DNA from: an uncultured Gammaproteobacteria bacterium
GTDB lineage: Bacteria > Patescibacteriota > Microgenomatia > Levybacterales > UBA12049
Assembly (NCBI GenBank): GCA_964553245.1
Contig: CAZKJM010000003.1
Coordinates: forward strand, 1 to 59,100
Length of the DNA: 59,100 nucleotides
Direction: 5' to 3'
In this document: piece by piece, positions 6,574 through 46,746 of the stretch
Layout of the letters: the number at the start of each line of letters is the position of its first letter
Position numbering within the stretch: position 1 is the first letter of the stretch
The notes under the pieces: generated by a model
Told to the model about the DNA's origin: nothing
Seen by the model: only the letters and a program-made list of their open reading frames with translations
The model's database searches: none
Program-made: the position numbers and the translations under genes

Positions 6574-7575
6574 TTAAAATCCTCCAACAACTGTAATATC
6601 GCCTTTAATTGGTGGATAAGGATTGTATCCCACGATCTCAAAATCTTCAAATTTAAAATCATCAATATTTTTAATTTTTGGATTAATCTTTATAATCGGA
6701 AATTTTCTTGGTTTTCTTTTTATTTGCTCTTTAACTTGCGAAAAATGATTTGAATAAATATGCGCATCGCCAAAAGTATGGACAAAAAATCCTGGCTTTA
6801 AACCAACAACCTGCGAAATCATAATTGCCAAGAGAGAATAACTGGCAATGTTAAAAGGTACACCCAAAAACATATCTGCGGATCTTTGATAAAGTTGTAA
6901 AGAAAGCCTATCGTTTACAACGCTAAATTGATAAATTGTGTGACAAGGCGGAAGTGCCATTGACATTCCAGGAGATGCCATTTCGTAAATAAATTCAGGA
7001 TTCCATGCGGAAACTACAATTGATTTCCTATAAGGTGTAGTTTTTAATTCGTTAATAGCCCAAGCAAGTTGATCAATAATCCTCCCGTCCGATGTTTTCC
7101 ATTTTCGCCATTGAACACCATATACATTTCCAATATCCCCCCATTTTGCAAATTCAGAATTTTTAGAAACTTCTTTTAAATGTGCTATAAATTCATCTTG
7201 ATCTTTAATCTTTTTTTCTTTATCTGTTAATTTATTTCCGGCAATTTTGCCATTTGCCATTTGCCATTTGCCATTCTTTTGCGCTTCTTTGAAGCGCTTA
7301 TACGCCCAGTCATCCCAAATATGAACATCATTGTCAACTAAATATTTAATATTGGAATTGCCACCAATAAACCATAAAAGCTCGTGAATAATCCCGCGTA
7401 AAAAAACTTTTTTTGTAGTTAACAAAGGAAATCCTTTAGATAAATCATAACGGCATTGCCTTCCAAAAACACTTCTGATAAAAACGTCTTTATGTCCAAA
7501 AACCGGTTTATCATTGCCTTTTTTTAAAATATCCGAAAGTAAATCCAAATATTGATATTCCGGATGTTTATGCAT
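6574..7575 (-). CDS. thyA: Thymidylate synthase
   Basis: FPLLTTKK, IIHELLWF, VYGVQWR, LPPCH, YQRSAD, GVPFNIASY, GDAHIY; start MHKHPEYQYL inferred. Confidence 0.99.
   Translation of the reverse strand: MHKHPEYQYLDLLSDILKKGNDKPVFGHKDVFIRSVFGRQCRYDLSKGFPLLTTKKVFLRGIIHELLWFIGGNSNIKYLVDNDVHIWDDWAYKRFKEAQKNGKWQMANGKIAGNKLTDKEKKIKDQDEFIAHLKEVSKNSEFAKWGDIGNVYGVQWRKWKTSDGRIIDQLAWAINELKTTPYRKSIVVSAWNPEFIYEMASPGMSMALPPCHTIYQFSVVNDRLSLQLYQRSADMFLGVPFNIASYSLLAIMISQVVGLKPGFFVHTFGDAHIYSNHFSQVKEQIKRKPRKFPIIKINPKIKNIDDFKFEDFEIVGYNPYPPIKGDITVVGGF
7246..7275. repeat. (TTTGCCA)x4 heptamer tandem repeat inside thyA
   Basis: Four exact copies, encoding NGKWQMANGK. Confidence 0.9.
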
Positions 7576-8529: not shown

Positions 8530-8537
8530 TAAATTTA

Positions 8538-8594
8538 TACGCTATCTCCTATTTGCTATATGCTATTCACTATGTGCCATACGCCATTTCGCCA
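8538..8594. repeat. Degenerate heptamer array (TACGCTA TCTCCTA TTTGCTA TATGCTA TTCACTA TGTGCCA TACGCCA TTTCGCCA)
   Basis: About 8 units, consensus TNTGCYA, directly after the stop of the dCTP deaminase-like gene. Confidence 0.85.
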
Positions 8595-9128
8595 TCATAC
8601 CTGTTTTTCTCTTTTTACTGCCGAAACTCTTCCACCCTGCCATTGCCCACGGTATTTGCTACCAACTCCTTTTATTTCGTTAAAAATAATGTGAACAAAT
8701 CTTGCTCCCATTTCGATTTCTACTGTAACCGGTCCTTCATTTTTAAGACCAAAAGTCAATTCGCCGCTATAGCCCGGCTGAACAGGACCTGTCCTTAAAA
8801 AAAGACCGGAGCGAAAAGTTGTTGTTCTTGGTAAAATTGTTGCGGATAAGCTTATCGGTAAATTAATTTTTTCGATTGTTTTTACTAAGAAAAAATCTCC
8901 GGGTTTTATTTTTACACTTTTATCTTTACCATATTTTTTAACCGATACTATATCTGGAGTTTTTCTGTGTGTTTCACCAAGAAATGCGCTTCCTGAAATC
9001 TTAAAAACTTCTCCTAATCTTAAATCAAAACCAGTTCCTTCCGGATTAGTCAATTCTCTTTCGGATAATCCCTCAACAAGCTTTTTTGTTTTTACAAGTT
9101 TTAATAAAACTTTCGGACTTATAATCAT
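8595..9128 (-). CDS. dCTP deaminase/trimeric dUTPase-family protein (second paralog)
   Basis: GFDLRLG, PRTTTFRSG, VQPGYSG, GARFVHI motifs. Confidence 0.85.
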   Translation of the reverse strand: MIISPKVLLKLVKTKKLVEGLSERELTNPEGTGFDLRLGEVFKISGSAFLGETHRKTPDIVSVKKYGKDKSVKIKPGDFFLVKTIEKINLPISLSATILPRTTTFRSGLFLRTGPVQPGYSGELTFGLKNEGPVTVEIEMGARFVHIIFNEIKGVGSKYRGQWQGGRVSAVKREKQV

Positions 9129-12503: not shown

Positions 12504-12510
12504 AAAATTG

Positions 12511-12583
12511 TGGGTACGGATGGAATCGAACCATCTGCCTCTTCTTTATCAGAGAAGCGTTCTAACCGGTGAACTACGTACCC
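12511..12583 (-). tRNA. tRNA-Ile(GAT)
   Basis: Full cloverleaf, anticodon loop CTGATAA; CCA not encoded. Confidence 0.97.
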
Positions 12584-12668
12584 ATTCTAGCATTTTAGCA
12601 AATTGAATGTATATTTAAAAGAAGATTGAAAATTTTTCCTTAAATCTATATTGTTTATTTTAATATTG

Positions 12669-12742
12669 AGGTGCGAGCCGGATTTGAACCGGCGAATACC
12701 TGTTCTGCAGACAGGCGTGTTAAGCCTCTTCACCATCGCACC
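12669..12742 (-). tRNA. tRNA-Cys(GCA)
   Basis: Full cloverleaf, anticodon loop CTGCAGA, U discriminator; CCA not encoded. Confidence 0.97.
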
Positions 12743-15073: not shown

Positions 15074-15108
15074 ATGACTATTTGCTATAAGCAATATGCC
15101 ATATGCTA
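15074..15108. repeat. Heptamer array in the 16S trailer (ATGACTA TTTGCTA TAAGCAA TATGCCA TATGCTA)
   Basis: Five units of the same family as 8538-8594. Confidence 0.8.
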
Positions 15109-15166
15109 ACTTCCGTGTCTTCTCTCTTTCTTACTCTGCAAAATAGGACGCGCCTATTTTGATTTT

Positions 15167-16777
<1,611 letters not shown>

Positions 16778-36140: not shown

Positions 36141-36212
36141 GCCGACATAGTTTAATGGTAAAACAAGTCATTGGTAATGACTAGAGCATGGGTCCGATTC
36201 CCATTGTCGGCT
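36141..36212 (+). tRNA. tRNA-Thr(GGT)
   Basis: Anticodon loop TTGGTAA, atypical T-loop TCCGATT. Confidence 0.95.
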
Positions 36213-36214
36213 CA

Positions 36215-36641
36215 AGATAGTTATGGGTTATTAGTTCGGAGTTATGAGACGATGGATAGTTTATTTAATTTTGAAAAGCTTGAAGTTTATAAAAGAACCG
36301 TAAATTTTGTTAATCAGGTTTATAAAATTACAAAATTATGGTCAAGAGATTTAAGTTTTTCCCTAACCGACCAATTTAGAAGAGCTTCGTTATCAATTGC
36401 TCTAAATATTGCTGAAGGAGCAAGTAGAACAAAACCCGAGTTTAAAAGATTTATAACTATCTCAAGAGGATCTGCTCATGAATGCATACCGATTCTTGAG
36501 ATTGCAGAAAAACAAGGTATAATTAATAAGAAAAGAAAGGAGGAATTAAGAGAAGAGATTATTATTATTTCTAAGATGTTAAGCAAGTTAAAAAATTCTA
36601 TTAGAATCTCATAATTAAAATCTCATAACTCATTACTATCT
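36215..36641 (+). mobile_element. Four-helix-bundle cassette bounded by inverted five-unit heptamer arrays and AGATAG/CTATCT termini
   Basis: Left array GATAGTT ATGGGTT ATTAGTT CGGAGTT ATGAGAC is the inverted counterpart of right array ATCTCAT AATTAAA ATCTCAT AACTCAT TACTATC; mobility is inferred. Confidence 0.65.
36252..36614 (+). CDS. Four helix bundle protein (23S rRNA IVS protein / bAvd-like, TIGR02436-type)
   Basis: FEKLEVYK, LTDQFRRASLSIALNIAEG, ISRGSAHE motifs; ATG 36252. Confidence 0.95.
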   Translation: MDSLFNFEKLEVYKRTVNFVNQVYKITKLWSRDLSFSLTDQFRRASLSIALNIAEGASRTKPEFKRFITISRGSAHECIPILEIAEKQGIINKKRKEELREEIIIISKMLSKLKNSIRIS

Positions 36642-36818
36642 ATGGCAAAAAAAGGTGAACACAGAATAAAATTAGGATTGGTTTGCAGTATTTGCAAAAA
36701 CAGAAATTACGTAACAACAAGGAATAAATTAAATACGGTAAATAAATTGTTATTAAAAAAATTCTGTAACCATTGCAGAAAAATAACCGATCATAAAGAA
36801 ACCGAAAAATTAAAATAG
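36642..36818 (+). CDS. rpmG: 50S ribosomal protein L33 (58 aa, Zn-binding type)
   Basis: Hand-translated: LVCSICKNRNYVTTRNK..LKKFCNHCRKITDHKE; conserved position before tRNA-Trp. Confidence 0.96.
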   Translation: MAKKGEHRIKLGLVCSICKNRNYVTTRNKLNTVNKLLLKKFCNHCRKITDHKETEKLK

Positions 36819-36877
36819 CATATAGCGTATAGCAAATGGTAAATGGTTAAATAATATACTATAATCTATATGCTATT
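36816..36877. repeat. Heptamer hairpin between rpmG and tRNA-Trp
   Basis: TAGCATA TAGCGTA TAGCAAA TGGTAAA TGGTTAA ... CTATAAT CTATATG CTAT; the first TAG is the rpmG stop. Confidence 0.85.
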
Positions 36878-36889
36878 TTGTTGCTTAAT

Positions 36890-46618: not shown

Positions 46619-46746
46619 CCTAAGACAGCGGGCAAAATAAGACCTGCCGAGGATGTTAGCAAATAGCTAATGGCAAATAGTATATAGAACAATAGGTAAT
46701 AAGCTATGCGCCATAAACTAGAAACACTCGGCAAGAGTGTTTTTTT
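46619..46746 (+). ncRNA. L10 leader attenuator with an inserted heptamer hairpin (46657-46720)
   Basis: AAGACAGCGGGC..CCTGCCGAGG core; terminator ACACTC-GGCAA-GAGTGT-T6; antiterminator pairing TGCCGAG/CTCGGCA. Confidence 0.75.

Follow-up and report, generated by a model that had tools for sequence, protein, structure and literature searches.

Introduction

What is a small gene for a four-helix-bundle (4HB) protein doing directly ahead of an essential ribosomal protein gene, with a tRNA gene on its other side, and why is it held between inverted arrays of a 7-nt repeat? The locus that raises this question occupies positions 36215-36641 of a 59,100-nt stretch of contig CAZKJM010000003.1 (assembly GCA_964553245.1; this whole stretch is called the window below) from an uncultured bacterium of the Levybacterales, a lineage of the candidate phyla radiation (CPR). 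Structures of PF05635, the family of the encoded protein, have been solved since 2006, and to our knowledge no function has been assigned to the family outside diversity-generating retroelements (DGRs). Likewise, we know of no explanation, in more than 30 years, either of rRNA intervening sequences (IVSs) or of bacterial heptamer arrays. Our analyses suggest, with a probability that we put at roughly 50%, that the locus is an IVS-type cassette placed outside rRNA, with an open reading frame (ORF) of its own, an RNA that would be processed at the stem formed by its arms, and a protein that would act on the heptamers of these arms.

Architecture of the cassette

The cassette is a discrete, dispensable unit (arm, 4HB ORF, arm) in a tRNA/rpmG/tRNA-Trp cluster, and its parts and host boundaries in the window are as follows.

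36141..36213, + strand: tRNA-Thr(GGT), the upstream host boundary (ARAGORN and Rfam)
36215..36249, + strand: left (5') arm; AGATA, then four GTTNNNN units in natural phase (GTTATGG, GTTATTA, GTTCGGA, GTTATGA)
36252..36614, + strand: 4HB ORF of 120 aa plus stop codon; PF05635/TIGR02436 four-helix bundle
36607..36641, + strand: right (3') arm, reverse-complementary to the left one; holds the stop codon of the ORF
36642..36818, + strand: rpmG (ribosomal protein L33), the downstream host boundary (Pfam and NCBIfam)

In the repeat search, the two 35-nt arms are separated by 357 nt and are complementary at 27 of 35 positions (77%); taken unit by unit from the outermost to the innermost, 7, 5, 5, 3, and 7 of 7 nt pair, the fourth unit being poorly paired, and the arms terminate in AGATAG (left) and CTATCT (right). 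The left arm begins 1 nt past the discriminator base of tRNA-Thr(GGT), which ends at 36213, the stop codon TAA (36612-36614) falls within the right arm, and the rpmG ATG (36642) starts at the base immediately 3' of that arm. A preliminary description of this DNA had reported the inverted heptamer arms with their termini, the stop codon inside the right array, and the rpmG start at the next base, all of which we find as described; its further statement that the ATG of the 4HB gene abuts the left array needs a small correction, as 2 nt separate the arm from this ATG (36252).

The same description proposed that the transcript could fold with the ORF looped out, and a terminal stem is indeed present in both the minimum-free-energy and the centroid folds predicted for 36205-36660. 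The arm-arm duplex has a predicted energy of -30.0 kcal/mol versus -11.4 +/- 2.9 for shuffled arms (z -6.5; 0 of 2000 shuffles as low), and none of 605 equally spaced segment pairs of the window matches it (best -19.7 kcal/mol), while the fold energy of the whole region 36205-36660 is unremarkable (z -1.44). As in an IVS, the terminal inverted repeats pair as a stem and the ORF lies in the loop. The boundaries read GGCTCA/AGATAG on the left and CTATCT/ATGGCA on the right and display no evident target-site duplication, the available filled and empty sites being too diverged for a base-level comparison.

The encoded protein

The ORF matches PF05635 (1e-29, 103.3 bits; cut-off 33.8), which is the sole Pfam family matched, and TIGR02436 (1.6e-28, 99.1 bits; cut-off 24). 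The AlphaFold2 monomer model (pLDDT, the predicted local distance difference test score, 94.5) consists of four helices (11-27, 32-57, 61-87, and 93-116), for which Foldseek returns XCC0516 (2GSC; TM score 0.87), BT_0352 (2RLD; 0.80), and the DGR protein Avd (4DWL, 8UB7; ~0.76), in agreement with the structural relationship to bAvd stated in the preliminary description; the sequence identity to Avd is only 10-13%. By analogy with the five-chain entries 2GSC, 2RLD, and 4DWL and with Xcc0516, which has been described as a homopentamer (PMC4990558), the protein would form a homopentameric ring. The dN/dS ratio of the ORF is 0.08-0.21 among orthologues for which dS can be estimated, indicating that the protein is under purifying selection. 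A short stretch within the ORF, AAGGAGG (codons R-K-E-E; window 36547-36554), is conserved at the nucleotide level in most orthologues, other synonymous sites being saturated.

The window holds just one 4HB gene. The family itself is very large, as 10,748 clusters at 50% identity match the window 4HB protein alone. We know of no catalytic activity or catalytic site of this protein, and no nuclease, recombinase, or polymerase motif or neighbor was found for its gene. A Pfam scan of the 20 flanking ORFs (25171-47289) revealed no reverse transcriptase; there was no PADLOC defense-system match, and no relatives of the protein were found in viral contigs.

Heptamer packaging across the family

The arrangement in the window recurs among homologues. 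We surveyed 60 nt on either side of 65 non-redundant homologous genes from metagenomes, in which self-identity at lag 7 amounts to 0.44 upstream and 0.42 downstream, compared with 0.24-0.31 at other lags and 0.25 at lag 7 within the ORF. At a threshold of at least 15 of 21 lag-7 matches, 43 of the 65 genes have a period-7 array upstream, 32 have one downstream, and 26 have both, the corresponding counts for other periods being 0-7. Cognate arm duplexes average -26 kcal/mol (-17 for shuffles), and 65 of 70 array consensus units carry GTT on the 5' arm, with the consensus GTT[C/A][A/G][T/C][A/C]. The inverted array pairs fall into two classes, one with loops of 0-60 nt (n = 18), all of them without an ORF, and one with loops of 251-500 nt (n = 34), in which a 4HB gene is found in 30 cases; the numbers 18 and 34 are biased by the choice of loci. 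The preliminary description had named a lack of inverted heptamer arms beside homologues as grounds for its own rejection, and it withstands this test since the arms are there. Because the loci were picked by similarity to the window protein, the packaging rule is established for the TIGR02436-like part of the family and a few distant cases. None of 57 homologous loci scanned sits in an rRNA gene. A crude ORF-based count shows the 4HB gene co-oriented with its upstream neighbor in a ratio of 42:12 and with its downstream neighbor in a ratio of 38:17, which fits dependence on host transcription.

Three further ideas about the units were considered and set aside. The GTT polarity is no evidence of ORF orientation, as an inverted repeat reads alike on both strands; given this symmetry, it shows only that the arrays have the form (GTTnnnn)n...(nnnnAAC)n and are never everted. 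Stop codons in all three frames as the cause of the 7-nt period would hold for GTTCATA, GTTATGA, and GTTCGTA and fails for GTTCGGA, CCGTTCA, and GGGAAAA. The likeness of GTTCRTA to the tRNA T-loop sequence GTTCRAN, from which it differs at position 6, is treated as a coincidence.

The packaging extends to cultured organisms. In Nostoc, Geminocystis, and Picosynechococcus, 4HB genes carried on plasmids are bracketed by inverted GGGAAAA, GGGTGTA, CAGGAGT, or GGAGATA arrays, and on a plasmid of Picosynechococcus sp. PCC 7003 (L171, 389-745), a cassette with GGAGATA arms separates cas10/cmr2 from cmr3 in a type III-B CRISPR operon, being inserted precisely at this junction, and its arms occupy the 36-nt gaps on either side; an earlier survey had reported 23S_rRNA_IVP genes scattered within cas operons. 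For XCC0516, which is the crystallized family member, the supplementary table of Rehm et al. 2015 lists four GGGAATC units overlapping its start codon, 6 nt after bccP (PMC4692102); this is the one documented array beside a 4HB gene in Xanthomonas, where ~186 GGGAATC arrays, including 70 convergent pairs, have been described (PMC4692102). In the 23S rRNA IVS of Coxiella burnetii, which has a 28-bp stem with mapped RNase III cleavage, two to three GACAGAT heptamers, variable in copy number, precede the ATG of the S23p gene within the stem (PMC4990558). ORF-bearing IVSs, the heptamers of the Coxiella IVS, and the heptamer arrays of Xanthomonas and cyanobacteria are thus already published; within a limited literature library, we found no paper that ties PF05635 genes to heptamer arrays beyond the Coxiella case or reports derivatives that lack the ORF.

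The same site in relatives

The order tRNA-Thr(GGT), 4HB, rpmG is kept in 11 distinct Microgenomates-type loci with a 4HB identity of 49% to 75%, and tRNA-Thr(GGT) precedes the cassette in 10 distinct loci besides the window. Across these loci, the terminal ATAG and CTAT are conserved, the stem closes 1-5 nt past the tRNA and at the rpmG ATG in all 11, and the unit type shifts on both arms jointly, from GTTATGR in the close clade to GTTACTT in L034 and CGTTAAT in L046. In the four loci with the closest L33 (L089, 81%; L095, 79%; L090, 78%; L091, 77%), as identified by a genome scan and L33 alignment, tRNA-Thr(GGT) and rpmG are separated by a gap of 21-147 nt, which contains neither a 4HB gene nor GTTATGR units; taken across the closest L33 relatives, the spacers measure 2-147 nt and likewise hold no 4HB gene. 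The presence of the cassette is therefore sporadic among close relatives, as is that of IVSs, and the empty sites in the closest relatives answer the second ground for rejection named in the preliminary description, namely a locus without empty-site alleles. One cassette (L096, 1048-1500) has a 4HB gene of full length interrupted by one in-frame TAA (RTGA*FKRF), together with intact GTTATGA arms and with ORF-less hairpins alongside; it could be a recent pseudogene or reflect a sequencing error.

In a neighbor-joining tree of L33, a short marker that gives a weak tree, the nearest neighbor lacks the cassette for 7 of the 11 bearers. Within the set of bearers, 4HB distances correlate with L33 distances (Mantel r 0.65, p 0.0014). 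Together with purifying selection, this co-divergence makes the protein look old, vertically inherited, and repeatedly lost rather than recently mobile. The simplest history that these sequences suggest is that of an old, vertically inherited cassette, functional but dispensable, which has been lost many times, and the ORF-bearing form gives no sign of recent mobility. The proposal of the preliminary description that the gene is a candidate autonomous member of a hairpin-element system is not supported as regards autonomous mobility, given this co-divergence and the absence of an evident target-site duplication. As a separate observation, duplicated 3' fragments of tRNA-Thr are present in spacers by the tRNA cluster in two loci (L010, 1107-1190; L095, 1354-1500), which points to local rearrangement or duplication activity.

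Hairpins without an ORF

The units of the cassette arms are also found in hairpins that carry no gene. In L009, L010, L013, and other loci, the tRNA-tRNA spacers measure 78-110 nt and consist of a GTTATGR hairpin starting ATAGTTATGG directly after the tRNA, the corresponding spacers of the window being 1 and 7 nt; in L001 and L005, a GTTATGR hairpin lies in the spacer between rpmG and tRNA-Trp. When aligned with the neighboring cassette from which the ORF has been deleted, the ORF-less hairpins are 76-87% identical (scores 25-38 versus 7 +/- 2 for shuffles), so both belong to one element family, with and without an ORF. Outside the arms, 8 of 9 cassette loci contain 4-14 GTTATGR/YCATAAC units, the exception being the window with 1, compared with 0-1 in the 8 closest cassette-less loci. 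That hairpins in separate spacers vanish with the cassette argues for a functional link between protein and hairpin. Same-unit empty hairpins also adjoin cassettes in unrelated lineages (L042, L072, L026, and L067). In the loci compared, the cassette and ORF-less hairpins homologous to its ends co-occur, in line with the link between gene presence and empty-hairpin counts that the preliminary description had suggested checking.

The window itself differs. It contains no other GTTATGR hairpins, and TTATGAG is not enriched in it (14 found, 10.2 expected). Its other period-7 arrays (8536-8600, 15077-15111, 36812-36851, and 46657-46689) form a second family with the unit ATRGCAW; they are always sense to local transcription and mostly lack an inverted partner. 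From first to last, they occupy the spacer that separates dcd from a DUF5680 gene, the 3' trailer of the 16S rRNA, the DNA following rpmG, and the region upstream of rplJ. Only one of them forms a clear hairpin:

36812..36879, + strand: ORF-less heptamer hairpin between rpmG and tRNA-Trp; unit ATAGCRT, unlike the cassette unit

Its 26-nt arms are 85% complementary, and its fold energy is -20 kcal/mol (z -2.5). The claim of heptamer hairpins scattered through the window therefore stands insofar as other period-7 arrays exist and falls as regards their unit and their number, and the window offers no other GTTATGR hairpins on which the protein could act.

In L001 (1977-2283), tRNA-Tyr and tRNA-Thr(TGT) are inverted relative to the window and have inverted GTTATGR arrays (2071-2202) in their spacer; these arrays may have mediated the inversion.

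Genomic setting and expression of rpmG

The cassette neighborhood is the classical tRNA/(tuf)/rpmG/secE-nusG region. The gene order in the window is def, fmt, rpmB, an M50 peptidase gene, tRNA-Thr(TGT), tRNA-Tyr, tRNA-Thr(GGT), cassette, rpmG, and tRNA-Trp, followed by three unrelated genes and then nusG, rplK, rplA, and rplJ. The names given to homologues and to the closest rpmG loci assign the window to Levyibacteriota/Microgenomates (CPR).

In cassette-bearing loci, including the window, rpmG has neither a Shine-Dalgarno (SD) sequence nor a -10 box of its own, and its ATG stands at the foot of the stem, 26-52 nt past the 4HB stop codon. Among cassette-less relatives, L090 and L105 have an SD sequence ahead of rpmG, and several others have a TATAAT-like box of leaderless type 6-7 nt before the ATG. 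With the cassette in place, L33 could be expressed if the stem is cleaved, if translation re-initiates downstream of the 4HB stop codon, or if transcription starts from a promoter-like site within the ORF, which we regard as a lead only:

36496..36523, + strand: promoter-like site inside the 4HB ORF; TTGAGA-16-TATAAT, 11 of 12 matches

Of 9 close orthologues, 7 retain the TATAAT of this site (in 6, as GGTATAAT), and most of these also retain a TTGNNA -35-like hexamer. The cassette-less Microgenomates-type loci with the TATAAT-like box 6-7 nt before the rpmG ATG and no SD sequence are L089, L094, L095, L097, L117, and L121, which suggests a leaderless L33 mRNA in this lineage.

A proposed mechanism

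If the cassette is an IVS-type element outside rRNA, its arms would pair in a read-through transcript as an imperfect stem of ~35 bp, bringing together the tRNA 3' end and the rpmG AUG. By analogy with the IVSs of Coxiella, Leptospira, and Salmonella, RNase III would cut this stem and so release the tRNA precursor on one side and, on the other, an rpmG mRNA that has a short leader and no SD sequence; we propose that an insert is tolerated in an essential gene cluster because its arms form a processed double-stranded RNA stem. In addition, rpmG may rely for its expression on the promoter-like site at 36496-36523 or on re-initiation by ribosomes that have passed the 4HB stop codon 27 nt upstream. 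The 4HB protein probably acts on the heptamer arms: as an Avd-like pentamer, it would bind them in the transcript that encodes it and in the ORF-less copies, one 7-nt unit per subunit being a plausible reason for the 7-nt period, and this binding would control processing or translation and stabilize or seed ORF-less hairpins.

Several observations weigh against this reading. About one-quarter of homologous loci have no pairing downstream arm within 60 nt, and the arms of homologous loci vary in length (2 to more than 10 units), for which reason a strict correspondence between five units and a pentamer is rejected. Mismatches between the arms are G-U-compatible in 33 cases and A-C in 31; with no preference for G-U over A-C, there is no RNA-specific signature and no support for selection acting on each position to maintain sense-RNA pairing, and the arms might play a role at the DNA level. 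RNase III cleavage at the window stem would be an extrapolation from rRNA IVSs. The window has no second GTTATGR hairpin despite its intact 4HB gene. Finally, the authors of the Coxiella study consider S23p to be probably not made and decaying (PMC4990558), whereas the window-type protein is conserved.

Alternative explanations

The co-occurrence of gene and hairpins also invites a reading on the lines of the REPIN/RAYT systems, in which the 4HB protein would copy or move heptamer hairpins, either as DNA or via an RNA intermediate with a reverse transcriptase acting in trans, the cassette being the autonomous element and the ORF-less hairpins its non-autonomous derivatives. The homology of these hairpins to the cassette ends, their restriction to cassette-carrying loci though in separate spacers, and the same-unit empty hairpins beside cassettes in unrelated lineages are what such a process would leave behind, as might the many Xanthomonas arrays and convergent pairs with one documented beside a 4HB gene; a reverse transcriptase and RNA are the working partners of Avd homologues (8UB7), and arms without a G-U bias allow for a structure at the DNA level. 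This is difficult to reconcile with a cassette that has co-diverged with rpmG at the tRNA-Thr site, with the lack of an evident target-site duplication, with the absence of a nuclease, recombinase, or polymerase motif or neighbor, of a reverse transcriptase in the 20 flanking ORFs, and of a PADLOC match, and with a window that has an intact gene and no same-unit hairpins. We therefore consider it unlikely, although it keeps appreciable weight because of the missing G-U preference and the joint loss of hairpins and gene.

A host origin of the structure appears more doubtful still. Here, a processing or attenuation hairpin of tRNA-Thr/rpmG would have grown by replication slippage, for which heptamers would be the favored unit, with the 4HB gene as a vertical passenger in its loop, perhaps domesticated as a regulator. 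The co-divergence of 4HB with rpmG and its purifying selection are in agreement with this, as is a stem that closes exactly at the AUG of an rpmG without an SD sequence or promoter of its own; in Acidobacteriota and Nitrospirota, rpmG and tRNA-Trp are commonly surrounded by heptamer hairpins with no 4HB gene, and heptamer repeats are reported in the literature to be over-represented in bacteria. Such an origin would explain the local synteny but not the packaging across the family, as it leaves unaccounted for the inverted heptamers that bracket PF05635 genes in cas operons, in the accB region, on plasmids, and in 23S rRNA, and the lack of both hairpin and gene in the nearest relatives.

That the protein is a DGR accessory protein is, despite its Avd-like fold (TM ~0.76 to 4DWL and 8UB7), effectively refuted for the window locus, given the absence of a reverse transcriptase among the 20 flanking ORFs, a sequence and fold much closer to the stand-alone XCC0516 and BT_0352, and no viral-contig relatives; a general repeat search found no long direct repeat near the locus, no search aimed at template and variable repeats having been made.

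Relation to known systems

The interpretation as an IVS-type cassette outside rRNA rests on likeness to the 23S IVSs of Leptospira and Coxiella (S23p; PMC4990558), which contain ORFs of the same protein family in the loop of a stem of terminal inverted repeats, have tandem heptamers directly upstream of the ATG in the Coxiella case, reside in an essential and highly transcribed unit, are sporadic in distribution, and have ORFs that can decay (as in L096 of the cassette family). On the other hand, the cassette is located between a tRNA and the start codon of an mRNA rather than in a 23S rRNA helix, purifying selection acts on its ORF, same-unit hairpins that lack an ORF occur in neighboring spacers, and RNase III cleavage, shown for the rRNA elements, is a prediction for the cassette. 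REPIN/RAYT systems (REPtron; PMC3116915) similarly comprise a single-copy gene flanked by an inverted, short, hairpin-forming repeat that is also found without the gene (for the cassette, in relatives and not in the window), and the repeat is lineage-specific, matched to its gene, and vertically inherited with loss; however, RAYT is a Y1 HUH transposase of known chemistry, whereas the 4HB ORF matches PF05635 only, and the cassette repeats are tandem 7-nt arrays and not a fixed palindrome. The cyanobacterial short tandemly repeated repetitive (STRR)-type arrays and the Xanthomonas GGGAATC arrays (PMC4692102) are likewise tandem 7-nt, lineage-specific, intergenic, and often in convergent pairs, and some of them immediately adjoin 4HB genes, namely on Nostoc plasmids and at XCC0516, but they were described without a link to a protein family, and most are not beside a 4HB gene. 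DGR Avd (4DWL, 8UB7) shares the four-helix-bundle fold, with pentameric solved relatives, and is a nucleic-acid-binding partner in a ribonucleoprotein, as the 4HB protein might be; it differs in its sequence (10-13% identity) and in its setting, no reverse transcriptase having been found among the 20 ORFs that flank the cassette and no long direct repeat near it. The ORF-less hairpins resemble miniature inverted-repeat transposable elements in being short and non-coding and in having the termini of an element that carries an ORF; in contrast to such systems, the cassette displays neither a transposase nor a visible target-site duplication, and its ORF-bearing copy is syntenic across deep divergence.

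The packaging links rRNA IVSs, heptamer repeat arrays, and the PF05635 family, and the rule that it follows (tandem heptamers in inverted orientation on either side of a 4HB ORF, and same-unit hairpins without an ORF close by) provides a concrete candidate ligand for the protein. A wider and speculative extension would have PF05635 pentamers recognize tandem heptamer arrays sequence-specifically, each subunit reading one unit, and maintain, process, or propagate a widespread class of heptamer-array hairpins, so that rRNA IVSs, STRR-type arrays, Xanthomonas GGGAATC arrays, and CPR hairpins would be one protein-plus-repeat system, RAYT/REPIN-like in scope; we advance this tentatively, as an idea that may well prove wrong. 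The packaging rule also yields a simple hypothesis (binding, RNase III processing, and hairpin stability) that is testable in cultured Nostoc, Picosynechococcus, Xanthomonas, and Coxiella. That cassettes can occupy the start codon of an essential ribosomal protein gene in reduced CPR genomes also bears on the expression of tRNA/ribosomal protein clusters.

Other features of the window and of comparison loci

Heptamers also occur within genes of the window. The coding sequence of thyA contains four perfect TGGCAAA heptamers (7246-7275, minus-strand sense; peptide KNGKWQMANGK), which fall in an insertion of ~55 aa relative to the Pfam thymidylate synthase profile. The 16S rRNA gene (15169-16777, minus strand) carries a hairpin insertion of ~130 nt at 16555-16690, in the V1/helix-6 area, with a fold energy of -54.6 kcal/mol (z -6.8) and one heptamer-periodic arm (16566-16600); in appearance, this insertion is an IVS-type hairpin without an ORF, located in small-subunit rRNA. 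A perfect 19-bp inverted repeat (14941-14959/16831-16849) brackets the 16S gene and is probably a processing stem. No 23S rRNA follows the 16S gene within the window, in which Rfam detects no large-subunit rRNA, and tRNA-Ile and tRNA-Cys (12510-12742) are found ~2.4 kb downstream of it, beyond two protein-size ORFs.

In Acidobacteriota, Nitrospirota, and a deltaproteobacterial metagenome-assembled genome, dense heptamer-array hairpins with units such as AATCGGC, GGGATGA, and AAGAACT surround rpmG and tRNA-Trp. The 3-kb loci concerned (L141, L142, L149, L153, L154, L166, L168 (Pyrinomonadaceae), L134, L152, and L158) contain no 4HB gene, and their array density is 0.37 per kb, compared with 0.08 in CPR cassette-less loci.

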